DNA of 29,004 bases from Candidatus Thorarchaeota archaeon (GCA_016840855.1 JAEORO010000075.1:1-29004); one strand, 5' to 3'; shown: positions 14,856-26,460, counted from the stretch's first letter. Notes: a model not told the origin generated them from the sequence alone. Translations and numbers: made by a program.

Positions 14856-15197
14856 TCATGAATTTTCCTTTCTAAAGAAACTCTTTGCTTTAGAACGTAG
14901 AATATAACTCCACGGAATGGTCATATTCTGATCTGAAATAGAAAGAGAGTATCGACTAACTCGAATCAGTTTCCTTCTAGAGCTAATTGTCCTTGGTCGG
15001 GACAGGTTAGAAATTATCTGAAGGTTGTTGGTAGGAGCATCAGCTCTCCAACATGGAAGGTTCAAATGACTTTTACCCCAACCAGTACTTTTGAAGTCCG
15101 CTAATATAGACCGACCTTTATTGGAACACAAACACCACCAATTCCCAACAAATTGAAAAGAGTCAGTACAATAGTAGCAATTCTGGCAACCTTTCGT
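14856..15197 (-). CDS. Small Cys-rich protein (113 aa) with apparent ACG start, or a start-lost pseudogene
   Basis: The frame of the 91-aa track ORF stays open upstream to a TAG at 15236-15234. SD GGAGG (15209-15205) lies 7 nt before ACG AAA GGT TGC at 15197, giving (M)KGCQNCYYCTDSFQFVGNWWCLCSN...LPCW. TATA-like TATTTA at about 15240-15235. Confidence 0.6.
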   Translation of the reverse strand, partial: TKGCQNCYYCTDSFQFVGNWWCLCSNKGRSILADFKSTGWGKSHLNLPCWRADAPTNNLQIISNLSRPRTISSRRKLIRVSRYSLSISDQNMTIPWSYILRSKAKSFFRKENS

Positions 15198-15277
15198 ATG
15201 GCTCCCTCCAGATTGTGCGTTCCAGTAATGAAGCTAAATATCTCTTGTGTGTGAGGATGAATGAGCAAGAAACCCAG

Positions 15278-15295
15278 AAAAAAAAGCGACGTCGC
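15278..15295 (-). terminator. Probable terminator of the PadR/small-protein operon
   Basis: Palindrome GCGACGTCGC (15286-15295) followed on the minus strand by T8, about 20 bp after the stop at 15314. Confidence 0.6.
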
Positions 15296-15313
15296 CACTA
15301 TGTTTCTTGAAGA

Positions 15314-15517
15314 TTATGCTTCCTGGGCATCTCCTTTCTCAAGTTCTTGGATTTTCTCATCAATATGCTTGATTTGGTCCTCAAGTCTTGACTTGAAAGC
15401 CTCTAGCCTTTTGATTCTGGTCCCTTTGCTTTCTTCATAAGGTGCGCATCCAAATGAATACATAAACGGGCCCATAAAGTGACTGTAGTATCTATGATCT
15501 CCATGTTCTCGGCACAT
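15314..15517 (-). CDS. Small DUF5320-like protein (Cys/His-containing N-terminus, C-terminal coiled coil)
   Basis: 67 aa starting 3 bp after the PadR stop. Helix RIKRLEAFKSRLEDQIKHIDEKIQELE. SD-like GGAGGTGA lies within the PadR 3' end. Confidence 0.8.
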   Translation of the reverse strand: MCREHGDHRYYSHFMGPFMYSFGCAPYEESKGTRIKRLEAFKSRLEDQIKHIDEKIQELEKGDAQEA

Positions 15518-15520
15518 CTC

Positions 15521-16099
15521 TCACTCTTCACCTCCGTTCCCTTTTTCTGAGCTCTTCATTTCTTCGAGTTGAGTATTTACCCAGTCTAATTCTTGCTTCA
15601 GGTATGAACGATACTGTTTTAGGAATTCGAGATGCTTGTGAGAGCAACGGCCAGATTCACATCTGGCTTTCATGGCTGCAAATCCAATTGGGCTACGTTC
15701 ACGGACGGTCCAGTCCAATAGAGGCGCAGCCGCCTTCTCTCCAGCTTGACTTGCCAAAAAACGCCAAATCCTACCTTGGGCACCCCACTCTGAATCAAGA
15801 TTCTGGAGTGCTAGAGATAGAATTTTTCGTCCCTTTGTAGTAAGTTCATATTCAACAGTATCTGGTCCATCTTCCTGTAAGACATGAGTTCCTTGGATTA
15901 ATCCTTTTTCGACAAGTCTATGAAGTGCAGGATAAACTGTCCCACTTTTGACTCTTATCGGACCTAGACGATCACCCAGTTTCTGAATAATGACATATCC
16001 ATGAGCTGGATTATCTTTTAGGATTGCTAGAATGAGCACCTGGACAGGGCTGAGTCTTGTCCCGTGGGGTTTATGTCTTCCCATGCCACTAAACGCCAT
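15521..16099 (-). CDS. PadR-family transcriptional regulator with extended C-terminal Cys/His motif and coiled coil
   Basis: ILAIL...PAHGYVI, SGTVYPALHRLVEKGLI and YELTTKGR form the PadR wHTH signature. C-terminal CESGRCSHKH plus a heptad helix. Confidence 0.92.
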   Translation of the reverse strand: MAFSGMGRHKPHGTRLSPVQVLILAILKDNPAHGYVIIQKLGDRLGPIRVKSGTVYPALHRLVEKGLIQGTHVLQEDGPDTVEYELTTKGRKILSLALQNLDSEWGAQGRIWRFLASQAGEKAAAPLLDWTVRERSPIGFAAMKARCESGRCSHKHLEFLKQYRSYLKQELDWVNTQLEEMKSSEKGNGGEE

Positions 16100-16157
16100 A
16101 TGTAGACACCTACTTATGTAGAGCTCTATATATATTATGTAGAGGTCTACATATAAA
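16100..16157. promoter_or_regulatory. Three tandem 16-bp palindromic operators plus TATA box of the PadR gene
   Basis: ATGTAGACACCTACTT (16100-16115), ATGTAGAGCTCTATAT (16116-16131) and ATGTAGAGGTCTACAT (16137-16152). Minus-strand TTTATA at 16157-16152. Confidence 0.85.
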
Positions 16158-16255
16158 TCTTGAGAATCTAACTAAGTTTACTAAGACATCATTTGTACGC
16201 TAAGAAGAGCTGTTTCTAGTGTTAGAGAAATGGCGGAGATATAGAGCATTGAGAG

Positions 16256-16924
16256 CTAACGATGATTAATTTCTGCATGTAGAAAAGACTCGCTCTGCAA
16301 ACCTTCAAAATCAAGTTCAGTCTGAATTGATGGGCTCCATGGGGAGGAGAGATATGTGATAGCATGAGGCCTGGATTTCTTGTCGACATTGACATATCCT
16401 TTCTTGATCAATTCTTTCACAAGCTTTCGAACAACAGATTTCTTTTCTCCCGTATCTTCAACGAGCTGGTCATATTCAGTTTTGCGATGCCTTTGAATTA
16501 CCTTAAGGAGTTTGAATTCGGGAATAGTATCTATTGTAACTCGCAAGAGCTCGTTTTCACGTCGCAATGCATTTTCGTCGCCAGAAAGGAAACGACTTAT
16601 TTCGTTTCGGAGGTCATTTATCTCTTCGACGAAAGAAAGCCGTTCAGATTCATATCGAGCAATAACACCATTGGATGCGTGTACTAGCTCAGAGCTCAAG
16701 TCATTGCCTAAGCCATCAATAGCTTCTCGTGAAGCCATACGAAACTCTCTGATGATTCCAATAATGTCCTCGGTTTCTAATAGCTTGTCATCCACCAAAG
16801 ATTCTATCTGCGAGAAATAAGCGTCAAGCCGTTTGGCCCAAATATCACGAATCTCTTGAAGAACTCCCGCAATCCGAAGAGTAATCCGTGCTGTATTATC
16901 ATCAGCAGTTGTCATATGTGTCAC
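16256..16924 (-). CDS. Helical/coiled-coil protein with C-terminal winged-helix domain
   Basis: 222 aa (ATG at 16915 is an alternative start). EEINDLRNEI...LRRENELLR coil, then wHTH-like LLKVI...YDQLVEDTG...VRKLVKELIKKGYV. Confidence 0.8.
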   Translation of the reverse strand: MTHMTTADDNTARITLRIAGVLQEIRDIWAKRLDAYFSQIESLVDDKLLETEDIIGIIREFRMASREAIDGLGNDLSSELVHASNGVIARYESERLSFVEEINDLRNEISRFLSGDENALRRENELLRVTIDTIPEFKLLKVIQRHRKTEYDQLVEDTGEKKSVVRKLVKELIKKGYVNVDKKSRPHAITYLSSPWSPSIQTELDFEGLQSESFLHAEINHR

Positions 16925-16985
16925 AAATAATCAATTGCAATATCTAAGATTAGAGCTAGTGTCACCGTGGTATGACCAAGACTTC

Positions 16986-17822
16986 TCAGATGTCTACCCA
17001 GAATATTCTATCTTTAATCTCTTCTATGGTATTTGGCCAAAGGTTGTATGATAGTTCTACCTTGGCCATCAGAGGTACAGTTTCGTCAATCAAGAATGAC
17101 TCAAGACCATGGCAGTAGTATAATGGTGTAATATCAACCGTCTTCATTTGATTCTCGGTTAGATCTAGCCATAGGAGGTTGTGACATTCCATTAACGGAC
17201 TCAAATCTATTTTGAGTATGCCTGCAGCCCTTAGCCAAAGACCCTCTAATTCTTGGCAACCTTTTAGTGGAGAAATATCCAATTCATCAAGTTTATTGCC
17301 TTCCAAAAAGAGCTCCTGTAGATTCAAGCAATTAGACAGTGGTTCAAGATCAATATCGTACAGCTCATTATTATCAAATCGTAGAAAACGTAGCGCTGTA
17401 CATTTTCTCATGGGTGATAAATCAATTTGATGAAAATCATTTGATTGAAGATTGAGTTCTTGGAGTTTTAGACATGTCATTAAAGGGGACAAATCAATCC
17501 GCTGGAGTTTGTTTATTTCAAGAGAAAGCGTGTCAAGATTTGAACAGAACTCAAGACCAGTCAGGTCGATAGAGGAAATAAGATTAGAACCAAGTAGAAG
17601 TTTCTCTAGACTTGGACAATCTTTGAGCGGCTGTAAATCTATTGATCTAATAAGATTGGCTGAAAGGTTGATATCTCTAAGAGTCTTGCATTGTTTTAAT
17701 TGTGAAAGGTCTATCTCAACTATTTTTCGCCCTGACAAGTCGATTTCTGTGACATCATCGTGAGTTTGAAAGTAAAGTTCCACGCCATTTTCAATTTTGA
17801 AGGTTATATGTATTTCAGCCAT
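16986..17822 (-). CDS. Leucine-rich repeat protein
   Basis: About 10 regular 22-aa repeats of the form IDLSPL..C..L..L.L..N.L. Confidence 0.95.
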   Translation of the reverse strand: MAEIHITFKIENGVELYFQTHDDVTEIDLSGRKIVEIDLSQLKQCKTLRDINLSANLIRSIDLQPLKDCPSLEKLLLGSNLISSIDLTGLEFCSNLDTLSLEINKLQRIDLSPLMTCLKLQELNLQSNDFHQIDLSPMRKCTALRFLRFDNNELYDIDLEPLSNCLNLQELFLEGNKLDELDISPLKGCQELEGLWLRAAGILKIDLSPLMECHNLLWLDLTENQMKTVDITPLYYCHGLESFLIDETVPLMAKVELSYNLWPNTIEEIKDRIFWVDI

Positions 17823-17896
17823 ACGATAGTCTTCCGGCCTATCTTTCGTATTTGTTTTTCTATCATTCTGCTAATAAATCGTTAAGTATTATGCAT

Positions 17897-18631
17897 TCAG
17901 ACTGGTGTGGACGTTTCTGAAGCCTCATGCGACCATTGGACATCGTTTAATCTTTCGTTGATAGGGTCCGGGAAATAAGGAAGATGCTTTAGTTTATGAT
18001 TTGCTATGAGAACAACATCGTCATCTACTAAGAATGATTCTAAATTCTCAAAGTGAAATAGCACTGAGATATCAATAGTCTGAAATGAGTTATCATTAAG
18101 ATGAATATAGCGAAGGTCTCTAGATCGATTCAAAGGACGAATATCAATTTCTCGAAGCATATTGCCAGAGAGGATTAGATATTGTAGTTTGGATAGTTCA
18201 GCTAATGGGCTAAGATCTAGTTCTCTAAGCCTATTATTAGAAATATACAGCCATCGCAAATCTCGACAATTTCTTAGGGGGGCAATATCAATTTCAGTCA
18301 GCAGATTATCTGAAAGCTCTAGAGCCTGAAGAAATGAACATTGAGATAGTGGACTAAGATCAATGTGATTAAGTTCATTTGATGTTATGCTCAGAATTTT
18401 CAAGCTCGAACAATAAGCGAGAGGAGCGAGATCAATTTCAGTTAGTAGATTTGAGTTCAAACCAAGTTTCTCAAGGTTTGGACAATGACCCAAAGGTTCG
18501 AGACTGATGGATTTTATACTCGTATCTGACAGGTCTATCTCAGTAAAATGGTCATCTTTTTCAACCTGATACTTTTCTCCATCTGATGCTACATACCTTA
18601 GGGTGAACCTGGTCACCAACATCCTCTCCAT
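17897..18631 (-). CDS. Leucine-rich repeat protein (tandem paralogue)
   Basis: About 8 repeats of 22 aa. Shares the TEIDLS N-cap and LESFL.D..V.L.A C-cap with 16986..17822. Confidence 0.95.
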   Translation of the reverse strand: MERMLVTRFTLRYVASDGEKYQVEKDDHFTEIDLSDTSIKSISLEPLGHCPNLEKLGLNSNLLTEIDLAPLAYCSSLKILSITSNELNHIDLSPLSQCSFLQALELSDNLLTEIDIAPLRNCRDLRWLYISNNRLRELDLSPLAELSKLQYLILSGNMLREIDIRPLNRSRDLRYIHLNDNSFQTIDISVLFHFENLESFLVDDDVVLIANHKLKHLPYFPDPINERLNDVQWSHEASETSTPV

Positions 18632-18737
18632 TATTACCTGTAAATCTGTCCTGATTTCTTTTATGCTTATGTCAAAGAACCATAATAAAGGTCACTCGAA
18701 AGAGGAATCATCCACCTATAAAACAAATTTTCAACTA

Positions 18738-19286
18738 TTACCGATCAAGATGAGCCCACGGGAGTGGATCAGGAATCGTTTGGATAAAGCGTCTTATTAT
18801 CTCTCGAATACCATCAGGATTATGAACACCATCAAAGACAAGAGCTGGTTCATCCTCATCCTCAGAAGTGAAAATCTCAACATCGCCCATGCCCACTTTA
18901 CGTTCATCAGGCGGGCCAGAGCTTGTCAGCATAGAAATCTCGTCATAAAACACTCTCTTTGTCTTTCTCGAAAAGACCCCTTTTCTCACTCTAACATTCC
19001 ATGTAGTAATAATATAGAGTGTAAACCAACGTCGACTTTCAGCCCAAGCCACTAGGAATATACCAAACACCATTGCGCCTACACTTAACCACCAAGATTC
19101 TAAATCATAACCTATCCCCCCATATGATGTGACGATCATGAATCCTGTTCCTACAATAAACACAACTGTGCCTAATACATAATAGAAGATGAAAGATGCA
19201 CGCTTCGGGTAGAAGATGCTTACTAACCTCTCTCTTTGGTTTGCAGGGAATGGTTCTTCTGGATTAGGCTCAGTCATTAGGCTCAC
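18738..19286 (-). CDS. Two-TM protein with bacterial-type PH domain (bPH_2/DUF304-like)
   Basis: Two TM helices, then YIITTWNVRVRKGVFSRKT...YDEI...GMGDVEIFTS...LVFDGVHNP. Alternative start at ATG 19277. Confidence 0.85.
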   Translation of the reverse strand: MSLMTEPNPEEPFPANQRERLVSIFYPKRASFIFYYVLGTVVFIVGTGFMIVTSYGGIGYDLESWWLSVGAMVFGIFLVAWAESRRWFTLYIITTWNVRVRKGVFSRKTKRVFYDEISMLTSSGPPDERKVGMGDVEIFTSEDEDEPALVFDGVHNPDGIREIIRRFIQTIPDPLPWAHLDR

Positions 19287-19390
19287 TGCCGTGCTTCAGT
19301 TTAAGCAACTTATGAACATGTCGAAAACTCAGAACCCAGTAAAGCTCGACGACGAGCTTAGCAGGAAAATTTCTTCTACATTTAACTGTA

Positions 19391-19792
19391 CTAAGCTGGA
19401 TAGATGTCCCACAAAGTGTCACAAGCATGCACAACATGACCAACGAGGGTTCTAATCTCATCTCCTGTAAGGTCTGTATCATTGGTTTCAGCGATGACAA
19501 TAATGTCATCATCATCATCAATCGCAAATTTCACACCATTGGCTTTCCAAGATTCTTTCAGCATATCATAAGCGAGTTTCATTCTCTTGGTTTCCTCAAC
19601 CTCATAGAAGTTAGTAAATGGTGCGACAACGTAAGCCCATGTTTCATCCTTGTTGGTGACAATCTTAATCTTAAGATCCTCAAAGTGGTCTGTCTTCCAC
19701 CTCATCATTAAGACATTATCTTCGCGCGTGTATTTGATATCAACAGAATCAAGCAATGAAGCAATATGGTCTACAATACTCAGTGTGAGCAC
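19391..19792 (-). CDS. YbjN/CesT-Tir (T3SS-chaperone-like) fold protein
   Basis: 133-aa acidic protein. L..DMLKESWKANGVKFAIDDDDDIIV...LTGDEIRTLV pattern. SD GAGGTG region at the start. Confidence 0.75.
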   Translation of the reverse strand: MLTLSIVDHIASLLDSVDIKYTREDNVLMMRWKTDHFEDLKIKIVTNKDETWAYVVAPFTNFYEVEETKRMKLAYDMLKESWKANGVKFAIDDDDDIIVIAETNDTDLTGDEIRTLVGHVVHACDTLWDIYPA

Positions 19793-19866
19793 CTCTATGG
19801 TGCGATGCCTATTGTTCCATATTAAGCTGTCTAGGGCATTTCGTTATCCCTAAAAAAAGATAAATA

Positions 19867-19900
19867 TATATCGTGCCACATACTATATCGTCTTACGTAA
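19867..19900. promoter_or_regulatory. Candidate PadR operator repeats
   Basis: TATATCGT at 19867-19874 and 19884-19891 (17-bp period), between an AT-rich TATA-like stretch and the PadR start. Confidence 0.5.
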
Positions 19901-19922
19901 TAACACTGGAGTTGTAAGATTC

Positions 19923-20300
19923 TTGACAAGTGCTAGTGACAATGTTGGTCCTGAAATTGAATACGAACGATGGTCACTGGAAATTCGAAGAGGTGCCCTC
20001 TCTTTGGCAATTCTGGCAATTATCTTGGATGGCGAATCTTATGGATATGATATCATGAAGAAACTTGGTCAGGAAGAGTATGATGCATTACAACTCGAAC
20101 CGAGTACAACATATCCTCTCCTGCGTCGATTGGAGAGAAGAGGTATCCTTGAGGGACGGTGGTCAGATGTATCCGGAAAAAGAAGAAGGCTGTATTATGT
20201 CACAAGAGAGGGTAGAAGAATTTTGAGGCGAATGGTGAAGAGCTGGCAGAGCTTGAACGATCAATTGTTGCGTTTGATAGAGGAGGCAGGTATCTCATGA
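19923..20300 (+). CDS. PadR-family regulator (short subfamily-2 type)
   Basis: RRGALSLAILAII...SYGYDI, STTYPLLRRLERRG, W......RRRLYYVTREGR...W. Confidence 0.95.
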   Translation: MTSASDNVGPEIEYERWSLEIRRGALSLAILAIILDGESYGYDIMKKLGQEEYDALQLEPSTTYPLLRRLERRGILEGRWSDVSGKRRRLYYVTREGRRILRRMVKSWQSLNDQLLRLIEEAGIS

Positions 20301-22120
20301 CTGGAAACCCAAATGAAATCATTGAAGAGTATCTAAAGCTTGTTTACGAACACTTGCCTGAATCAATCTCAGAGGATGTGATTACGGAACTTAGAACCTA
20401 TATGGTCGAAACAGCGCGAGATTTTGGGAATGGCGAAATTACAATTCAATCAGCAAAAAAAGTCGTGGCACAATTTGGAGCTCCAAGCGAAGTAGCAAAT
20501 GAATACAAATACTCAATGCTCCCTGAAGCAGTTCCTGAAGATGCTGGAGATTCTTCAAGTGCTGAAGCCATTCCTTCTATAATTAGTGAGCCGGAAGATA
20601 AGATTGAAAAGTACAGACCAAAGGAAGGGTCACCTAAATCATTCTTAGAATTCTTCTTTCAAGGAGTATCTATTGCACTTCTATGGCTGCTACTTGTTGT
20701 TATTGGTTCAACTTTACTAGGACCTGTCTGGTTATACCCCAGTTCAATAATCACACTCTTTTTCCAAGTGTTGATTGTGACTTTTGGAATAGGTTTTCTA
20801 ACTTACAGTCTTAAACGACAAAAGAGGACACTTTGGACATATAGCTACCCTGAGTGGTCATTCCTTCAGAAGTGGTTAACACTCCCAGAAAATATAATCA
20901 AAGAACCCTCCAACATACTCCTTGCATTTGATATTCTTGGTTCAATAATTGGGATAGGATTGTACTTTTTCTCTTCCAATTTTGCCCCAAGTCCTTACTA
21001 CATTCCTATAATTGGGCTTCCAGTTTGTTTTGCTTTCGTAGCTAAGATTTACAATAGTGGAAAACGCATTACCATACTTGATACCACACGCTATATCAGA
21101 AGAGAAGTTGTAACAACATTTACTTGTCTACTACTCATCAATAGTTCACTCATCTGGATCATCTCTTACTACTTGGTTGTAAATAATCTACTCACTTTTC
21201 TCCTTTGGTTGTATTCGATATTATGGGGGCCAGTACTTCTATTTCAGCTCGTAATTAATAGTGGGGAACTCTGGTGGGAAGTAGAGTCCATTGAAGTAGC
21301 AGCTACTCCAGTTCAAAAGCTGGTGCTTGCACACAGTATCAAAAATATTGTAGGGTCAACAATTCTAAGGATGATTGGTTGGATCGCATTGCTAACCATG
21401 ATTCTAACATATTTCTTGATGATATCAGTTAGAGCTACATCTCCATGGTATGCTCCACTTTTTATAGCAGTCTTCTTTGGACCTATCTTCTTAACCCCAA
21501 TTATTCTATATTTTGTCTTTCGTTATTGGAGAGTTAGCATTGGTGCATCCAAATCAGTCTTTGGAGAACGTTCAAGATTGGAAGCATTAGGAGATATTGC
21601 AATCTCAATTGCAGCATTTTTTGGAATAATGAATAGTATTTCATTTTGGCTTTTTTCAAATGGTTTGTTGGATCAATATTCTTTTGTATTTCATGATCTT
21701 GGCGCATTAGGAGCGCTACATACTACAGTGGCGTATGTTTCCTCTGATCTACTCTTTGTCATTGCTCTAATCCTTCGTATTACCGGTGATTTCTTAGAAT
21801 TTAGCAAGAAAAGAAAGTCATCCGCGATTTCCTTTATGATAGTGTCAAGTAGAATTCTGATTGTTGGTATCTCACTTCGAGCTGGTGTAGACATTCTAGC
21901 ATACTACCCTGTGCTTTTTCCATATTTACTACTTCCAGGTTTTCTACTTCTTGTAGTCTTGATAGCCTTTCAGAGTGAAACTTCAAGTTTGAAACAAAGA
22001 GAAATGAGGTCTAGTAATTCGAAAGAACATACGCAGCAGCGATTCCCGAATCGTGAGATAGTAAAAACTTCTGATACTGCTAAAGGTAAATATCAGGAAG
22101 GTCAGTTTCCTAGTAACTAA
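20297..22120 (+). CDS. HAAS-domain (DUF1700-like) polytopic membrane protein
   Basis: The N-terminal IIEEYLKLV...L.....DVITELRTY...VVAQFGAPSEVANEY is the HAAS pattern. About 12 hydrophobic segments. ATGA overlap with PadR. Confidence 0.85.
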   Translation: MTGNPNEIIEEYLKLVYEHLPESISEDVITELRTYMVETARDFGNGEITIQSAKKVVAQFGAPSEVANEYKYSMLPEAVPEDAGDSSSAEAIPSIISEPEDKIEKYRPKEGSPKSFLEFFFQGVSIALLWLLLVVIGSTLLGPVWLYPSSIITLFFQVLIVTFGIGFLTYSLKRQKRTLWTYSYPEWSFLQKWLTLPENIIKEPSNILLAFDILGSIIGIGLYFFSSNFAPSPYYIPIIGLPVCFAFVAKIYNSGKRITILDTTRYIRREVVTTFTCLLLINSSLIWIISYYLVVNNLLTFLLWLYSILWGPVLLFQLVINSGELWWEVESIEVAATPVQKLVLAHSIKNIVGSTILRMIGWIALLTMILTYFLMISVRATSPWYAPLFIAVFFGPIFLTPIILYFVFRYWRVSIGASKSVFGERSRLEALGDIAISIAAFFGIMNSISFWLFSNGLLDQYSFVFHDLGALGALHTTVAYVSSDLLFVIALILRITGDFLEFSKKRKSSAISFMIVSSRILIVGISLRAGVDILAYYPVLFPYLLLPGFLLLVVLIAFQSETSSLKQREMRSSNSKEHTQQRFPNREIVKTSDTAKGKYQEGQFPSN

Positions 22121-22213
22121 AGTTGCTCAAGTTTATTTGCCTTCATGAGTATAGCTACTCAAGTGGCCAGTAGTAGGGTCTACATCGCATTCCGAGGAGT
22201 CAATGGATAGAAG

Positions 22214-23170
22214 ATGCAGGATGTTGTGGCAATCGCGGCATTACTAAGAGAGGTTTCATTTGGAATACTGATAGCTGGACTGTTCTATACATTTGGTATG
22301 TTTGCTTTGGGGAGGGTTTTTTCTGCATTATCTGAACATGGTGCCGCCGAACATGATGTAGACCATGATGTTGATCATGACGTGGACCATGATGTTGACC
22401 ATGACATTGATCATGATGTGGATCATGACATTGGTCACGATGTCGAACACGACTTTGATCATGGATATGATGTAGACCATGGAGTAGCCATACATGATTT
22501 GGACCATGAACTCGATCACGAGTTAGATCATGGAGATCTAGACCACGAGTTAGATCATGGAGATCTAGACCACGATATCGAACATGATATGGACCATGAT
22601 GTAGGTCATGATGCTGAACACGATGTAGAGCATCACGTAGAACATGACCATGAAATCGATACGGAACATGATGCTCCAGTAGACAAATCAGGATTCTTCG
22701 AAGCTGAGCGGGGCGCTCCTATGGGTGTAACAATTGGTACATCTCTCGTGACATTTGGATTTCTAGGTTCACTTCTCTATTACGAAGGAATTATGCTCCC
22801 TCTGGTTGGTAAGATAGCCATTCACTTGTTGGGAGTGGCAGCCATTGTCTACAGTGTTCGGACTGTTCTCCGAAAAGCCTTTGTCGAGTCTGGATTTAGA
22901 ATCGAACCAAGACATATTGTTGGTAGAGAGGTTGAGGCTGTATCTACAGTGAGTGATGGATTTGGTGAGGTCCGGTTAGAGACTGAGATGGGACTTCGTC
23001 GTTTTCATGCTAGACCATTTCAGAAAGGAGTCATATTCCAAAAAGGGACTGACCTATATGTAGTGTCAGCAGATGATAAATTCGTGTACGTGGATCCACG
23101 AAAAGATGTTGTAAAGTGGCTACAGAAGCAGAGTAAGAAACCGGATGACGAAAAACATCCCAAAAAGTGA
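22214..23170 (+). CDS. NfeD-like (YuaF/YqiJ-type) flotillin partner with long His/Asp repeat
   Basis: TM, HD tract, two TMs, then an OB-fold-like C-terminus (IVGREVEAV....GFGEVRLE...HAR......KGTDLYVV). Lies upstream of an SPFH gene. Confidence 0.85.
   Translation: MQDVVAIAALLREVSFGILIAGLFYTFGMFALGRVFSALSEHGAAEHDVDHDVDHDVDHDVDHDIDHDVDHDIGHDVEHDFDHGYDVDHGVAIHDLDHELDHELDHGDLDHELDHGDLDHDIEHDMDHDVGHDAEHDVEHHVEHDHEIDTEHDAPVDKSGFFEAERGAPMGVTIGTSLVTFGFLGSLLYYEGIMLPLVGKIAIHLLGVAAIVYSVRTVLRKAFVESGFRIEPRHIVGREVEAVSTVSDGFGEVRLETEMGLRRFHARPFQKGVIFQKGTDLYVVSADDKFVYVDPRKDVVKWLQKQSKKPDDEKHPKK
22334..22672 (+). repeat. Coding His/Asp tetrapeptide repeat with an exact 27-bp tandem duplication
   Basis: 113 codons of (D/E)-H-(D/E/G)-hydrophobic units containing 28 His. 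CACGAGTTAGATCATGGAGATCTAGAC occurs at 22517-22543 and 22544-22570. Confidence 0.95.
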
Positions 23171-23186
23171 CGAATCTCTGCACACA

Positions 23187-23378
23187 TTTATATCTCCTCA
23201 AAACAAAGAGTACACAAGTGCGTTCGTAGGAAGGCCACAAACTGTCGGAGAGAGACATGTTGAGAGTGGAGTTCACAGACACTCAGGTCAGTGCAACGAA
23301 GCAAAAGTGTTGATCTCACGATGAAAAGATGGGACCCACGAGGGCATGTTCACAGATGATATGTGAGAAGGATAACAG
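23187..23378 (+). promoter_or_regulatory. Internal promoter and long leader of the flotillin gene
   Basis: TTTATA at 23187-23192, about 190 bp before the ATG. Several short hairpins lie in between. Confidence 0.45.
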
Positions 23379-24713
23379 ATGCAAGCAAGTATAATGGACT
23401 GGTTCGCGAGTAATCCCGCAGTCTCATTAGGTCTATTGTTGATAATGGTCATACTTCTGCTAGTGATATACATTAGAAAGTATGTTCGGATATTTGACCC
23501 AAACATCTTCTATGTTCACTTGAGGCGCGGCAAAGCCATCAAGCAGGGCGAGGGTGGCATGGTAATTCGAATTCCTTTCTTTGATCGTATTCTCGCAGTT
23601 GATAGGACTGTACAGCAGTTGAATATCTCAGCTGAGTCAGTTCTTTCGAAAGAGAAGCAGAAGATTCGATTGAGTGCTGTTCTGCAGTGGCAGGCTGAAA
23701 ATGCTATTGCCACCATTAACAACGTGACATGGAAGGAGATTCCAAGCAGACTAACAGCTATCATCGAGTCAGTCATACGTACCGCTTGTGCGCAACTATC
23801 AGTTGAATCAATTCTGGAAGAGCGTCAGTTAATTATTGAAGCAATTAAAAAAGAGCTGATAGACATCGTTTCAGAATGGGGTCTGAAAGTAGTAACGGTC
23901 GAATTGGTCGATGTCACAGTTGTTAATGAATCATTCTTGAGAGATATGTCGAAACCTCGTGAAGCCGAAATGCATCGACTAGCACAGATTGCTCTTATCG
24001 AAGCGGATCAAGCAACGGGTACCAGAGATATTGAGAGAAGTAAAGTTCTTCGTGAGCAAGAGATTGCACGTGACAAGTTGATAGGTGTACAAGAACAGTC
24101 ACAACTCCGGGATATCCAAGAGGCTGAGAAGCAGCGTGAGCAGAGTGTTCTTGAGATTGCACTTCAGAAAGACTTGATGCAAAAGAAATACGAGAAACAA
24201 CAAGCCGAGGTTGAAGCTGCAAAGGATCTTGAAGTCGCAAAACTTGGAGCTGAAGCTGAGAAACAGCGTAAGATCAAGGAAGAGGTTGAGGTCCAGGCTC
24301 AAAGGATTATGCAGGAAGCTAAGGCTGAAGCCGAGAAGATTAGCATGGTTGCTGAGGCTGAAGCTGGCCAGATTCTGAAAGTCACAAGTGCTCAAGCTGA
24401 AGGTATCAAAAAGACTCTTGAAGCTGCTCGAGATTACTCACCCCAAGCTTTCGCCAGAGACTTCCTACAAATACTACCTGAGATTTACAGACAAATAGAG
24501 ATCGGAGATGTCACACTATTCGGAGGCGCTGGCGGAACAGGAGTAGAGGGAGAGGAAGGTGCAGGTGGAGCTCAAGCTTTCCAAGTTTTTGGTAATGTCT
24601 TGTTGCCTATGATGCTTATTGCACGAATGATGGGCTTTGACTTCAAGGGCCTCATGAAAGATGCTCTAGGCGACATGGCTTCCACTGACGAAGAATCAAA
24701 GAAGTCAAAATAG
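23379..24713 (+). CDS. SPFH/Band-7 protein with flotillin-like coiled coil
   Basis: N-terminal TM. Band-7 core (IPFFDRI...SAESVLSKEKQ...VIRT....LSVESILEER...WGLKV). EA-rich AEAEA coil. FLQILPEI C-terminal motif. Confidence 0.93.
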   Translation: MQASIMDWFASNPAVSLGLLLIMVILLLVIYIRKYVRIFDPNIFYVHLRRGKAIKQGEGGMVIRIPFFDRILAVDRTVQQLNISAESVLSKEKQKIRLSAVLQWQAENAIATINNVTWKEIPSRLTAIIESVIRTACAQLSVESILEERQLIIEAIKKELIDIVSEWGLKVVTVELVDVTVVNESFLRDMSKPREAEMHRLAQIALIEADQATGTRDIERSKVLREQEIARDKLIGVQEQSQLRDIQEAEKQREQSVLEIALQKDLMQKKYEKQQAEVEAAKDLEVAKLGAEAEKQRKIKEEVEVQAQRIMQEAKAEAEKISMVAEAEAGQILKVTSAQAEGIKKTLEAARDYSPQAFARDFLQILPEIYRQIEIGDVTLFGGAGGTGVEGEEGAGGAQAFQVFGNVLLPMMLIARMMGFDFKGLMKDALGDMASTDEESKKSK

Positions 24714-24722
24714 AGTTAATCC

Positions 24723-24790
24723 GGGGCGTATCATCGCCCCTGTGATTATTCCATTGAGGCTGCCAAGACGAGCCTCTTTGGGATTTTTTT
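24723..24790 (+). terminator. Two hairpins plus T-tract between convergent flotillin and tusA
   Basis: GGGGCG/CGCCCC (24723-24740), GAGGCT/AGCCTC (24756-24776) and T7 at 24784-24790. Confidence 0.65.
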
Positions 24791-24792
24791 AA

Positions 24793-25032
24793 TTATTTTA
24801 AACGTTTGATATACCAGATTAGCTTGTCGCCTTCTTCAATAAGCTCTACGATCTCATTGCCTGTCCTAGAGGACCATGCTGGAAAGTCTTTTTTTGTTCC
24901 AACATCCGTGGCAATTACTTTCAAGATCTCACCAATGTTTACCTCTTGAATTTCTTTCTTGGTCTTTAAAATTGGCATTGGGCATCTAAGTCCGCTTGCA
25001 TCGAATTCTCTGGCTACTTGATGGTCTGTCAT
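24793..25032 (-). CDS. tusA: TusA/SirA-family sulfur carrier
   Basis: DASGLRCPMPILKTKK, GEILKVIATD, DFPAW...GN. Confidence 0.93.
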   Translation of the reverse strand: MTDHQVAREFDASGLRCPMPILKTKKEIQEVNIGEILKVIATDVGTKKDFPAWSSRTGNEIVELIEEGDKLIWYIKRLK

Positions 25033-25113
25033 GATTCAATCAACCTGTTCCGATTTTTATTCAGATTTATGCATTCCTATAGAACAATTGCGAGAGCAGC
25101 AAAAGCGACGTAT

Positions 25114-25593
25114 TTACTTGCCATTTACTGGAATCGAAGTAGCAAAGGCATCCACCTTCTTCTGCCAGCCTTCTTCAAGAGGACCCTTTATCCCTAGCAC
25201 GTAGACTCTCGCCTCTGCTACTTTTTTGAGTCCCTTGTCTAACAGAATTTCTCTTATGGTTGGAAGAACCTTCTGACAAGCCCCTTCTTCAGTGGAAACC
25301 TTACCAGTCTTTTTATCTGGCTGCGGTGCCATCTCCGTGGTCAGAATTGCACATCTTGTGCCGGGAGTCAAATCGATTTTCTCCAAGAATTTTCGAATTT
25401 CTTTGACAGGTTTGCCGAAGCGTCCAGGCGAGCTGAACACATATATATCAGCAGGTAGAATCTCTTTTGGCTTGATTTTTTTGACATGATGGATGTTCAC
25501 AGTGACATCCTTCGCCATCATAATTTTCTTAAACTCCTCAGCAACCTGAACTCCGTTCCCATATTTAGAAGCGTGAAAGTATTCTATTATCAT
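25114..25593 (-). CDS. Flavodoxin-like protein
   Basis: Phosphate loop HASKYGNG, VFSSPGRFG, and a C-terminal KGPLEEG typical of this subfamily. Confidence 0.85.
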   Translation of the reverse strand: MIIEYFHASKYGNGVQVAEEFKKIMMAKDVTVNIHHVKKIKPKEILPADIYVFSSPGRFGKPVKEIRKFLEKIDLTPGTRCAILTTEMAPQPDKKTGKVSTEEGACQKVLPTIREILLDKGLKKVAEARVYVLGIKGPLEEGWQKKVDAFATSIPVNGK

Positions 25594-25620
25594 TATTCAA
25601 TATCCACATCCATTTTCAAT

Positions 25621-26460
25621 TTATTCTGAAACGAGCCCAAATCCCGCTTGCATGAGCTCAGAAAGTCTGGCGAGGAACCGGGTTGCGGGAGCTCCAAGAG
25701 ATATCTCCTCATCGAACATCACGGTCATGTTAAGGAATTCACCTAGCTCAGCTGGATTAGCATAGTTTCTAGGTTTTGTAGAGATGCCCCCCAACGCGAA
25801 CACAACAGAGTGTAGACCAATTGGGATGGCCCATCCTCCACCTTTTCCAAACATACCTACTGCAGTGACGGCAACGGTGCCCATGAGGTGTTTCCTCAGA
25901 AACGGGTCGGACCTGATTCGTCTCCAGTATATCTTCCTCAGAAACTCTGGCAATCGAGAGAAGATTCTAACAGACGCAGGCGGTTTCTCATCAGCTTCGC
26001 GTTCCCCACTTATTTCACCCTTCTGGGCTTGACGGATTTCATTATGGATCTGCCTGAAGCTCTTCTCATTTGCTTTCCTTACACAGTAGCTGGTCGCGAA
26101 TCTTTGTGCTTCCACTTGTCGTTCAATAATCATACCAACATCGACATCATCGAAGACAATCAATCTCTTCTTGCCTTTTTTCATAGCTTGGACTTCTTTA
26201 TGCTCACTGATAGCTTGTCCAACGCACTTGATCACCCAACCAGTGAAAGACAGCTTCTCTCCTGTCCTAGCGTCATTCTCTGAGATGAATTTTCTTGCAT
26301 CAGTAACATCAATCTCAACAAGCCCATAGATTCGATGCTTTGGTGCTAAATTATTGAGAAGTTCTACAGGTCTTGTCGATTTTCGGATTATTTCCCTGTA
26401 GGGCGAATCACCTTCTCTTTCTTTTGGTTCATCGCCTAAGTTCTGTCTTCGCGCAGCCAT
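25621..26460 (-). CDS. Stand-alone 2-oxo-acid dehydrogenase E2 catalytic-domain homologue with degenerate active site
   Basis: VEIDVT, LSFTGWVIK, GTVAVTAVGMFG and GAPATRFL motifs. No lipoyl domain. DHxxxDG reads DEEISLG. Confidence 0.85.
   Translation of the reverse strand: MAARRQNLGDEPKEREGDSPYREIIRKSTRPVELLNNLAPKHRIYGLVEIDVTDARKFISENDARTGEKLSFTGWVIKCVGQAISEHKEVQAMKKGKKRLIVFDDVDVGMIIERQVEAQRFATSYCVRKANEKSFRQIHNEIRQAQKGEISGEREADEKPPASVRIFSRLPEFLRKIYWRRIRSDPFLRKHLMGTVAVTAVGMFGKGGGWAIPIGLHSVVFALGGISTKPRNYANPAELGEFLNMTVMFDEEISLGAPATRFLARLSELMQAGFGLVSE

Follow-up and report, generated by a model that had tools for sequence, protein, structure and literature searches.

The locus at 18738-24713 is best explained as a composite of separable units, in which a core pair of genes for an NfeD-like and a flotillin-like protein is accompanied by a divergent unit and by an optional cassette, encoding PadR and HAAS proteins, that would regulate itself. 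We give this reading a probability of about 0.55. Gene identities, folds, synteny, cassette presence or absence and motif distribution are observations, and all functions assigned to the locus are predictions. The initial annotation is partly supported, but its central idea, that a membrane HAAS sensor controls PadR and thereby a flotillin scaffold, is not supported by the tests made.

Locus organization and source

Six ORFs lie at 18738-24713 of the window, which is the whole 29,004-nucleotide stretch of DNA analysed. On the minus strand are genes for a 2TM-bPH protein (bPH_2; 18738..19286, 182 aa) and, divergent from padR, a CesT/YbjN-fold protein (19391..19792, 133 aa). On the plus strand follow padR (19923..20300, 125 aa, TTG start), which encodes a member of a winged-helix repressor family, the gene for a 607 aa HAAS membrane protein (20297..22120), an NfeD-like gene of the YuaF/YqiJ type (nfeD; 22214..23170, 318 aa) and a gene for a flotillin-like SPFH protein (flot; 23379..24713, 444 aa). 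The ORF check of the window gave coordinates identical to those first annotated and confirmed that the two gene sets diverge from an intergenic region of 130 nt (19793-19922). The PadR, bPH_2 and Band_7 assignments exceed their Pfam cut-offs. The spacing from the HAAS gene to nfeD is 93 nt and the spacer between nfeD and flot is ~200 nt. The arrangement is more than chance, because it recurs in relatives.

The Asgard origin suggested for the window is supported: the source names of homologues are Candidatus Thorarchaeota, and two genes of the genome (3.36 Mb, 92% complete) exceed the Pfam cut-off for Snf7. The locus was also described as lacking PspA, and this holds well beyond it. PspA_IM30 has no match in the genome, nor is it over the cut-off in any of the 87 genomes sampled from the order, in a search that matched 9 of 14 control genomes.

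The NfeD-like and flotillin-like core

The NfeD-like/flotillin pair is the constant core across the 87 genomes of the order. An NfeD-like gene lies upstream of flot in 32/32 flotillin loci fetched from the order, either next to it or separated from it by one to a few genes, and the two occur together in three of four more distant genomes of the phylum. Orthologues of flot were found in 12 of the 17 genera of the order (identity 78-99%), and 6 of the 11 genera examined carry the pair without bPH, CesT-like or PadR-HAAS genes.

The flotillin-like protein matches Band_7 (PF01145; 79 bits against a Pfam cut-off of 23.6, 6.1e-22). It has an N-terminal hydrophobic segment at aa 14-32 (hydropathy scan), an SPFH domain at aa 40-206 and, beyond this, a long helical region rich in Glu, Ala and Lys. 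Searches of PDB sequences with phmmer returned stomatin, aligned to no more than the SPFH part (2e-12), and flotillin-1, which covers aa 58-371 (1.5e-8). Pfam Flot (PF15975) was not detected in the protein at E<=0.01, and the NCBIfam FloT model scored 31 bits against a cut-off of 700, so the apparent likeness to flotillin proper is confined to the architecture and the flotillin-1 match. A proposed relevance to eukaryotic membrane microdomains found no specific support. Published work already reports NfeD2/flotillin-like pairs to be widespread among bacteria and archaea (PMC2636767, PMC11237479).

The partner has no Pfam or NCBIfam match to NfeD (PF01957) even at E up to 10, and a genome-wide search found two other NfeD genes and not this one. 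Its AF2 model comprises TM1, a disordered Asp/His-rich repeat (aa ~45-165), TM2, TM3 and a C-terminal all-beta, OB-like barrel (aa ~230-298); the repeat DNA consists of tandem units of 12, 24 and 27 nt at 22352-22600. The closest structure to the model is 3cp0 (Foldseek E 2.8e-4; VIA Z 12.2, rmsd 1.4, 63 aligned), followed in VIA by 3wwv PH1510-C (Z 10.3), YuaF 2k14 (Z 9.2) and 2exd (Z 7.7). It is thus the predicted fold, with soluble domains of NfeD proteins as best matches, that identifies the protein as NfeD-like, and the label stands without Pfam support.

By analogy with solved SPFH-NfeD cages, the two proteins would presumably assemble into a scaffold attached to the membrane, with the NfeD beta-barrel touching the SPFH ring. 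The odd number of TM segments would place the Asp/His repeat loop on the side of the beta-barrel, and the loop would be cytoplasmic if the barrel is. In B. subtilis yuaF-floT (yuaG) and E. coli yqiJ-yqiK (Hinderhofer et al. 2009, PMC2636767), a 3-TM NfeD-barrel protein likewise precedes a flotillin-like SPFH protein. Unlike those pairs, the one described here has a ~120-residue Asp/His repeat between TM1 and TM2 of the NfeD-like partner, separate conserved TATA-like elements with a ~200-nt spacer, and proteins that escape the Pfam models for NfeD and Flot.

The PadR-HAAS cassette

The PadR protein matches its family at 62.9 bits (PF03551; Pfam cut-off 27, 2.7e-17), the family profile retrieves 41 PadR structures from the PDB at E<=1e-5, and orthologues within the genus are 78-90% identical. 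The start of the HAAS gene overlaps the padR stop by 4 nt, and each of the three HAAS genes in this genome directly follows a PadR gene. For this copy the HAAS assignment is borderline by score (PF22564; 22.1 bits against a cut-off of 27, and 26.5 to 27.1 bits in a six-frame search); the GxP motif (G61-A62-P63) and the pairing with PadR speak for it. Ravi et al. 2024 (PMC11237479) describe HAAS-PadR dyads, in which a HAAS gene always neighbours a standalone PadR-like gene, and a conserved GxP motif in the third helix of HAAS. Among 52 scanned representatives of the family, 49 match HAAS at E<=1e-3 and 31 score at or above 27 bits. The domain (aa 1-75) is cytoplasmic, and in its GxP region F60, G61 and P63 do not vary among 18 sequences, and A62 hardly does. 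Beyond it lie an acidic linker and ~12 TM segments with short outer loops (TM scan). This 12-TM domain has no Pfam match, and the protein family has only 82 representatives among 1.84 billion proteins. Across 17 relatives the median identity is 68% in the HAAS domain and 25% in the TM region.

A complex of PadR with HAAS, which the initial annotation had proposed for modelling, scored 0.70, the best of three controls reaching 0.11. The score is the model's own confidence; values at this level were obtained for 116 of 157 solved complexes and for 2 of 215 mismatched pairs, counts that are a rough guide here, since the alignments were our own and PadR was entered as two copies. Runs share at least 73% of contacts, the partner pLDDT is at least 78, and a sequence search of the PDB found no HAAS-like chain. 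The modelled interface joins PadR residues 41-45, 59-72 and 86-89 to HAAS residues 28-39 and 59-74, which suggests that the GxP region contacts the DNA-reading helix of PadR. We predict that the cytoplasmic HAAS domain grips the recognition helix and wing of PadR through this region, so that the state of the membrane part would determine the share of PadR left free for DNA.

PadR-HAAS is a separable cassette, in which padR and a translationally coupled HAAS-12TM gene are wedged between the divergent unit and the core. It is linked to the NfeD-flotillin pair in many relatives: within the genus, 12 of the 16 loci that could be resolved carry the cassette and four congeners lack it, and all 3 loci fetched from a second genus have it. 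In one of these (G069) exactly window positions 19868-22087 are missing, a clean loss of 2,220 bp with the rest of the locus intact, and since the TATA-like element is still there, as are the final ~33 nt of the HAAS frame, this gap is a deletion. In contigs of two runs from two studies, position 19841 is connected to 22118 through 29 nucleotides of different sequence. PadR-HAAS occurs in unrelated contexts in G011, G020, G077 and G082, with PadR 80-84% identical, and the g25 genomes G080 and G077 have a flotillin locus without it, the G077 pair lying on another contig. Between the locus lineages of the two genera PadR identity is 61-62%, and the PadR tree is compatible with either an ancestral association with the locus or two separate origins. 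The cassette is flanked by neither repeats nor an integrase. Other inserts found in the same place encode a secreted beta-propeller-like protein, an IS transposase, a STAND NTPase, a histidine kinase and a solute-binding protein.

The arrangement resembles other HAAS-PadR dyads, such as Listeria lltR-lmo0600-lmo0601, in having a standalone PadR and, after it, a membrane protein whose N-terminal HAAS/DUF1700 domain contains GxP (lmo0600 is a DUF1700 multi-TM protein; PMC6624303), and autoregulation is a likely further likeness. It differs from them in that HAAS is fused to an uncharacterised 12-TM domain, rather than to PspC, LiaF or Toastrack, and in that the cassette adjoins nfeD-flot.

Candidate operator and promoter elements

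The candidate PadR operator (19868..19899, plus strand) consists of tandem boxes, ATATCGTGCCACATA and ATATCGTCTTACGTA, directly 3' of a TATA-like ATAAATAT upstream of padR; the consensus of the tandem motif is ATATCGT-N3-ACRTA. ATATCGTNNNACRTA has only two exact matches in the 3.36-Mb genome, both at padR, and with one mismatch the motif has 19 matches against 34 for a reversed control pattern. Of the 16 loci in which the region upstream of padR is visible, 14 carry the motif; the exceptions are G054, which has palindromic variants such as ATATCGTTAAACGATAT, and G055, whose contig breaks off at padR. It travels with padR wherever padR lies, and was not found in cassette-less loci or in the upstream regions of nfeD and flot. 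This distribution points to the boxes as a putative PadR operator.

Both core genes have TATA-like elements on the plus strand, at 22137..22144 (GTTTATTT, ~70 nt upstream of nfeD) and at 23185..23192 (ATTTATAT, ~190 nt upstream of flot). The nfeD block, CTCA(A/G)GTTTATTTGCCTTCA..GAGTATAGCTAC, is conserved whether or not a locus carries PadR-HAAS; the flot block, GCGCAG(G/A)TTTATA(T/A)CCCCTCA...ACAAGTGCG, is kept in 11/11 aligned loci, and the blocks before both genes are retained in the cassette-less G002, G006 and G020. Judged by conservation, these elements are candidate promoters, and each core gene would be driven by its own.

PadR would repress its own promoter via the tandem boxes, which overlap the expected transcription start. 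The main output would be the cassette itself, as in Listeria LltR-Lmo0600, with at most partial read-through into nfeD, 93 nt downstream. Regulation of PadR-HAAS by itself is most likely, and control of flotillin could come only from read-through.

An unlikely alternative, close to the initial annotation, makes PadR-HAAS a dedicated sensor and regulator of the flotillin scaffold in a PspA-independent envelope stress response. Membrane stress at the 12-TM part would lead HAAS to capture PadR, the padR promoter would fire, and one long padR-HAAS-nfeD transcript, perhaps also including flot, would raise scaffold output. The genes do share strand and order, they are linked in two genera, and no run of five or more T lies in the short stretch between HAAS and nfeD, so read-through into nfeD may be substantial. 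There are also precedents. In a Listeria repressor mutant, lltR-lmo0600-lmo0601 was derepressed 100- to 150-fold and the next gene, partly induced by read-through, 12.7-fold (PMC6624303). In Dokdonia donghaensis (ANH61663.1) PadR-HAAS lies a few genes from CesT-PspA-YqiJ/YuaF-flotillin, according to a supplementary table of Ravi et al.; no discussion of this link was found in main-text passages of that paper, and Dokdonia, unlike the organism described here, is a bacterium with PspA. The motif, however, is unique to the padR promoter, the independent TATA-like elements persist where the cassette is missing, and the nfeD-flot pair is kept without it in the four congeners, one via recent deletion, and in the two g25 genomes. 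Some genomes have an extra gene of ~2 kb, in part of them on the opposite strand, that separates nfeD from flot or HAAS from nfeD; a single transcript would be interrupted there. These points, together with the unrelated contexts in which PadR-HAAS occurs, speak against HAAS controlling flotillin through PadR. The position of PadR-HAAS beside nfeD-flot, in the same orientation, in two genera with rather different PadR-HAAS lineages, together with the combination seen in Dokdonia, nevertheless argues for a tighter functional tie than a self-contained cassette would have, and a second, different PadR recognition site might exist.

The divergent unit

The divergent unit of the composite locus would comprise the genes for the CesT/YbjN-fold and 2TM-bPH proteins, then those for two LRR proteins and a winged-helix protein. 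The bPH protein matches bPH_2 (PF03703; 36.7 bits against a Pfam cut-off of 22, 5e-9) and has hydrophobic segments at aa 33-51 and 62-80 (hydropathy scan). The CesT-like protein scored below the cut-off for YbjN (PF10722; E=0.1, 13.3 bits against 22), and the YbjN/CesT-like label, which has no Pfam support, is confirmed by the predicted fold alone. The model (pLDDT 90) has an alpha-beta3-alpha-beta2-alpha fold, for which Foldseek gives 29 matches at E<=1e-3; every match listed, and all of the best 20 rows in VIA (Z 10.4 to 14.6), are of CesT/YbjN fold, including type III secretion chaperones, YbjN, AmyR and DR_1245. The top VIA match is BacA (8q8o; Z 14.6, rmsd 2.3, 124 aligned). We found 169 homologues, with at least 67% identity among the 120 matches listed; those that carry a source name are all from Asgard MAGs, mostly Thorarchaeota.

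A divergent bPH gene lies beside the NfeD-like/flot pair in five genera, in three of which the CesT-like gene is also present. Beyond the bPH gene, a minus-strand array (15521..18631) has a gene order conserved within the genus. As assigned with Pfam, it holds two LRR protein genes (17897-18631 and 16986-17822), a gene for a 222 aa coiled-coil and winged-helix protein (16256-16924) and a second, longer PadR gene (15521-16099). Outside this genus, the winged-helix and bPH genes adjoin the NfeD-like/flot pair in two more genera. Membership of this array in the system is uncertain.

The gain, loss and relocation of PadR-HAAS, the variable inserts in the same place and the genera that have the pair alone would fit a mobile, self-contained PadR-HAAS that landed in a permissive divergent intergenic region, with bPH, CesT-like and LRR genes as mere neighbours of a housekeeping NfeD-flotillin pair, but we think this improbable in view of the recurrence of bPH in five genera and of PadR-HAAS in the same slot in two, the lack of flanking repeats or integrase, the BacA match (the Pseudomonas bacA operon also encodes a short NfeD, PA14_16160, and an SPFH protein, PA14_16180; PMC13086221), and the description of CesT/Tir with YqiJ/YuaF and flotillin as a recurrent association (PMC11237479).

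The composite locus has its closest counterparts in the P. aeruginosa BAC cluster (bacA-F) and the CesT/Tir-PspA operons of Ravi et al., which share with it CesT/YbjN-fold, short NfeD-type and SPFH genes; the BAC operon order is bacA, pspA-like bacB, short nfeD, SPFH. In contrast to these, PspA is absent at the locus and order-wide, the CesT-like gene shares the divergent strand with a 2TM-bPH gene, an AAA+ ATPase is missing, and the organism is an archaeon with putative TATA-type promoters, not sigma-54. Abbreviated operons of flotillin and YqiJ/YuaF without PspA are described by Ravi et al. 2024 in bacteria and archaea (PMC11237479). Loss of BacA raises BacB, BacC and BacD 7- to 13-fold (PMC10948618). 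The CesT-like protein, as the structural counterpart of BacA, is probably a chaperone or regulator of membrane partners. Every part of the locus is of a known kind, and the combination is new: a flotillin pair with CesT-like and bPH genes and an optional PadR-HAAS cassette.

Gene content and protein families

The six genes described in the initial annotation are open reading frames at exactly its coordinates, and its overall observation is confirmed. The minus strand encodes a 2TM-bPH protein (18738-19286; Pfam bPH_2 above cut-off) and a 133-aa protein with the predicted CesT/YbjN fold (19391-19792). Divergent from these, on the plus strand, are padR (19923-20300; TTG start, Pfam PadR above cut-off), the gene for a 607-aa HAAS-domain membrane protein (20297-22120), whose own ATG overlaps the padR stop by 4 nt, nfeD, encoding an NfeD-like membrane protein of 318 aa assigned by predicted fold (22214-23170), and flot, encoding an SPFH (flotillin-like) protein of 444 aa (23379-24713; Pfam Band_7 above cut-off). 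The family names originally given to PadR, bPH and Band_7 hold by Pfam, and those of the NfeD-like and YbjN-like proteins hold by predicted fold but lack significant Pfam or NCBIfam support. Sequence searches with the latter two proteins recovered only close Thorarchaeota-type relatives without Pfam domains, and PDB sequence searches gave nothing useful. These two labels were checked by predicted structure.

The model of the NfeD-like protein has a confident first TM segment, a disordered Asp/His repeat (aa 41-166), two further TM segments and a C-terminal beta domain whose best structural matches, by both Foldseek and VIA, are NfeD soluble domains. The closest is 3cp0 (Foldseek E 2.8e-4, TM 0.85 on target; VIA Z 12.2, rmsd 1.4, 63 aligned), and VIA also recovered PH1510-C (3wwv, Z 10.3), YuaF (2k14, Z 9.2) and 2exd (Z 7.7). 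The 133-aa protein is modelled at pLDDT 90 and adopts an alpha-beta3-alpha-beta2-alpha fold, as do YbjN proteins and type III secretion chaperones. It has 29 Foldseek matches at E<=1e-3, and its best 20 VIA matches are all of this fold, led by the Pseudomonas aeruginosa protein BacA (8q8o; Z 14.6, rmsd 2.3, 124 aligned).

Tandem repeats of 12, 24 and 27 nt (22352-22600) encode the Asp/His-rich loop of the NfeD-like protein. The loop differs greatly in length between orthologues, whose sizes run from 245 to 358 aa. In genome G002 the gene is split into two overlapping frames inside the repeat (L032:5877-7005), which may reflect a frameshift or an assembly error.

The 607-aa protein scores 22.1 bits against Pfam HAAS (cut-off 27), and 26.5 to 27.1 bits in a six-frame search. 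The same model is matched at E<=1e-3 by 49 of 52 relatives of the protein, and in 18 sequences the GxP motif that defines HAAS (G61-A62-P63) varies little or not at all. Each of the three HAAS genes in this genome lies directly 3' of a PadR gene. At the family level, sequence comparison thereby supports the HAAS identity. By hydropathy, the cytoplasmic HAAS domain and a linker are followed by 12 TM segments, with positively charged loops on the presumed cytoplasmic side; three of the six outer loops have just 8-9 residues. This layout suggests that the 12-TM part could be a sensor of the membrane itself. No usable match to the 12-TM part was found in the protein atlas.

Absence of PspA from the lineage

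The sources of close homologues are named Candidatus Thorarchaeota, and the genome itself comprises 3.36 Mb in 259 contigs (92% complete). We identified two Snf7 genes above the Pfam cut-off in it and no PspA_IM30 match. Among the 87 genomes of the order none has PspA_IM30 above the Pfam cut-off (6 have weak matches of ~20-23 bits), compared with 9 of 14 control genomes. The locus was thus rightly described as lacking PspA, and the absence is a trait of the lineage, not of the flotillin locus. The genome also encodes four Band_7 genes and, elsewhere (contigs C99 and C86), two canonical NfeD genes.

Conservation of the locus across the order

We searched every one of the order's 87 genomes, which belong to 17 genera, for the HAAS protein and the flotillin-like protein, and compared the ORFs of 36 fetched regions with the proteins of the window and with Pfam. 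NfeD-like and flotillin-like genes occur together in every fetched flotillin locus, with nfeD upstream of flot and one to a few genes intervening in some genomes. The pair is also present in three of four more distant genomes of the phylum; in the fourth, a RING-finger protein takes that place.

Neighbourhood conservation, which the initial annotation proposed as a check, is partial for PadR-HAAS. In the genus of the window (28 genomes), 12 loci carry padR and the HAAS gene as a cassette between the CesT-like gene and nfeD, nine of them complete (G000, G009, G012, G013, G015, G016, G017, G023, G024) and three cut by a contig end (G004, G014, G021), and the pair likewise accompanies nfeD-flot in all three fetched loci of a second genus, g22. 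Four congeners lack the cassette (G002, G006, G020, G069), and there the CesT-like gene is directly divergent from nfeD. Contig ends prevent a call in five loci (G001, G018, G019, G022, G068), and in 7 of the 28 genomes no flotillin orthologue was found at E<=1e-25.

The g22 loci, which have no CesT-like gene, consist of winged-helix and bPH genes divergent from genes for PadR, HAAS (837-882 aa), a ~635-aa secreted protein, NfeD-like and flotillin-like proteins; in one of the three the contig stops at padR and the bPH position falls outside it. In genus g25, winged-helix, LRR, bPH and metallo-beta-lactamase-fold genes diverge from the NfeD-like/flotillin pair, and PadR-HAAS pairs (PadR 80-81% identical) are sited away from it. 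The g23 locus has bPH and CesT-like genes divergent from the pair, and in g18 the order CesT-like, bPH, LRR diverges from STAND NTPase, NfeD-like, flotillin. Six further genera have the pair alone. The constant part is NfeD-flotillin, often with bPH, and PadR-HAAS is the optional part.

Other genes near the locus are conserved or variable to differing degrees. On the minus strand 3' of bPH (15521-18631), two LRR proteins, a 222-aa coiled-coil and winged-helix protein and a longer second PadR (192 aa) are encoded in an order conserved across the genus; two other genera likewise have the winged-helix protein and bPH beside the flotillin pair. TusA, flavodoxin-like and 2-oxoacid dehydrogenase acyltransferase-like genes (24793-26460, minus strand) converge on flot, and TusA follows flot in 14 of 15 complete genus loci, G015 having an intervening TPR gene. 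The proteins of a secreted family (~630-700 aa) begin with a signal-like segment, continue with beta-propeller-like repeats and end in a TM anchor that has a basic tail; the family has no Pfam match and no copy in the window. In two genera its members (20-62% identical) occupy the gap between nfeD and flot or that between HAAS and nfeD, in either orientation (minus strand, L041:4909-7017, L044:5309-7294, L045:4851-6797, L051:7045-8979, L052:1132-3087 and L049:6353-8290; plus strand, L048:7218-9098 and L050:6629-8536). One locus of the second genus (G055) has an IS-type DDE transposase gene (DDE_Tnp_1; L049:2369-3283) between nfeD and flot, and two shorter paralogues of the secreted protein. 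Genes beside or between nfeD and flot in other genera encode a STAND-type P-loop NTPase (L057:4877-7039, G048), a response-regulator/PAS histidine kinase (L060:1997-4189, G066) and a family-5 solute-binding protein (L058:3543-5438, G046).

The PadR-HAAS cassette as a separable unit

The cassette-less genome G069 encodes a flotillin-like protein 99% identical to that of the window and aligns continuously with 19391-19867 (92%) and 22088-22661 (88%), so that exactly 19868-22087 is missing. Because padR's TATA-like element and the final ~33 nt of the HAAS reading frame are still present in G069, we conclude that the cassette was lost by deletion. For G002, G006 and G020 the alignment breaks near 19837 and again at 22112-22125. 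In two public runs, each from a different study, contigs connect 19841 to 22118 through 29 other nucleotides; these contigs leave gaps in places, which carry no information. Thus, cassette-plus and cassette-minus forms both occur in nature, and the sample types in which they are found are the same.

PadR-HAAS pairs in unrelated contexts were identified in G011 and G020 (PadR 82-84% identical). A PadR tree of 17 sequences, with the window's second PadR as an outgroup on a very long branch, recovers a clade of pairs sited in other contexts (support 95/100) and a g22 clade (93/100). It leaves the in-locus sequences of the genus unresolved and does not decide between one ancestral association and two acquisitions. 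Two more dyads in the window's own genome, with HAAS proteins of 148 and 372 aa, are at G000:C257:84134-84930 (L009:1118-1914) and G000:C153:1635-3118 (L010:583-2066); one adjoins an MFS transporter gene.

Candidate operator and TATA-like elements

Directly after a TATA-like element at 19858-19865, ATAAATAT, upstream of padR are two tandem boxes, ATATCGTGCCACATA (19868-19882) and ATATCGTCTTACGTA (19885-19899), which together span 32 bp. Exact matches to their pattern, ATATCGTNNNACRTA, occur in the whole genome only as these two boxes, and one mismatch adds 19 matches (34 for the reversed control pattern). The element lies upstream of padR in the genus and g22 as well as in pairs sited elsewhere, at times with an inverted third copy; in G054 it forms a perfect palindrome, ATATCGTTAAACGATAT. 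No fetched locus has it upstream of nfeD or flot, and it is absent from cassette-less loci except for three isolated single matches away from padR (G051, G066, G077). Because it co-migrates with padR, we call it a candidate PadR operator.

Conserved blocks with TATA-like cores lie ~70 nt upstream of nfeD (GTTTATTT, core at 22137-22144) and ~190 nt upstream of flot (ATTTATAT, core at 23185-23192), and both are retained in cassette-less loci. The interval from the latter element to the flot start (23193-23378, ~190 nt) contains conserved blocks ACAAGTGCG, CTGAGAGAGA and GGTGGAGT. This leader has no consensus RNA fold across 11 loci, and no Rfam family was found at E<=0.1 in 15000-26000, leader included.

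Self-regulation is the most likely role of the cassette. The sequence evidence does not support a direct control of flotillin by PadR; it is at most possible that the flotillin pair is raised via read-through from the padR promoter.

Predicted contact between HAAS and PadR

Modelling of the PadR-HAAS complex had been suggested in the initial annotation. With two PadR copies and HAAS residues 1-95 the score is 0.70, whereas the highest-scoring of three controls has 0.11, and the model supports binding of HAAS to PadR. Of 157 solved complexes 116 attain this score, as do 2 of 215 mismatched pairs; these counts hold only roughly here, because the alignments were our own and PadR was entered in two copies. 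Separate runs share at least 73% of contacts, with partner pLDDT of at least 78. A sequence search of the PDB returned no HAAS-like chain, and the result is thus unlikely to be recall of a solved complex.

In the model, HAAS residues 28-39 and 59-74 (the GxP region) face PadR residues 41-45, 59-72 and 86-89, which correspond to helix 2, the recognition helix EPSTTYPLLRRLE and the wing. In a Listeria repressor, the equivalent Leu/Arg residues are described as the operator recognition site (PMC6624303). If the model is right, HAAS-bound PadR would be unable to read DNA and, since the interface falls on the DNA-reading face, HAAS would be a membrane-tethered anti-repressor. Across 17 relatives the median identity is 68% for the HAAS domain and 25% for the 12-TM region, and PadR is 78-90% identical within the genus. 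These values would fit a docking module that is conserved and sits on a membrane part that changes quickly.

Relation to known systems

The NfeD2-flotillin pair, the CesT/YbjN-like partner and the HAAS-PadR dyad have each already been described in bacteria. Hinderhofer et al. (2009; PMC2636767) describe flotillin-like SPFH2 genes that share operons with NfeD homologues of weak conservation, YuaF and YqiJ among them. The HAAS-PadR dyad was defined by Ravi et al. (2024; PMC11237479), who also report CesT/Tir-PspA operons encoding a YqiJ/YuaF protein together with a TM-band-7-flotillin protein, and shortened operons of bacteria and archaea from which PspA is missing. Their supplementary table has a Dokdonia neighbourhood with PadR-HAAS a few genes from CesT-PspA-YqiJ/YuaF-flotillin; the term 'bPH' does not occur in the main text and one supplement. 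The Pseudomonas BAC operon begins with BacA and the PspA-like BacB (PMC10948618) and includes a short NfeD and the SPFH protein PaFlo3 (PMC13086221). The studied PadR-HAAS (DUF1700) example, lltR-lmo0600-lmo0601 of Listeria, is mainly self-regulating (PMC6624303). SPFH-like baskets beneath the membrane of another Asgard archaeon are described in a preprint (10.1101/2025.11.06.686947). Our literature search found no paper on both Thorarchaeota and flotillin and, among the matches listed, only Ravi et al. treat PadR-HAAS together with flotillin.

Interpretation

This locus of an Asgard lineage combines known modules in a new way: its NfeD2/flotillin-like core is constant, a divergent bPH gene is frequent and in some genera accompanied by a CesT-like gene, and the PadR-HAAS cassette is optional. 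The suggested link to eukaryotic membrane microdomains finds no specific support. It is unlikely, with a probability of roughly one in six, that HAAS-12TM/PadR is the dedicated membrane-state sensor of a flotillin/NfeD repair scaffold in PspA-less Thorarchaeia. Under such a scheme, stress would make the GxP groove of HAAS clamp the DNA-reading helix and wing of PadR; the padR promoter would then fire, and read-through would lift expression of nfeD (and flot). The CesT-like protein would chaperone the Asp/His-rich NfeD loop or the flotillin tail.

Modules known from bacteria are found here together in an Asgard lineage without PspA, and its natural cassette-plus and cassette-minus populations would allow nfeD and flot expression to be compared. 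Were the HAAS protein such a sensor, there would be an Asgard envelope-stress response resting on flotillin in place of PspA, and a membrane-tethered anti-repressor mechanism could hold for HAAS-PadR pairs generally.
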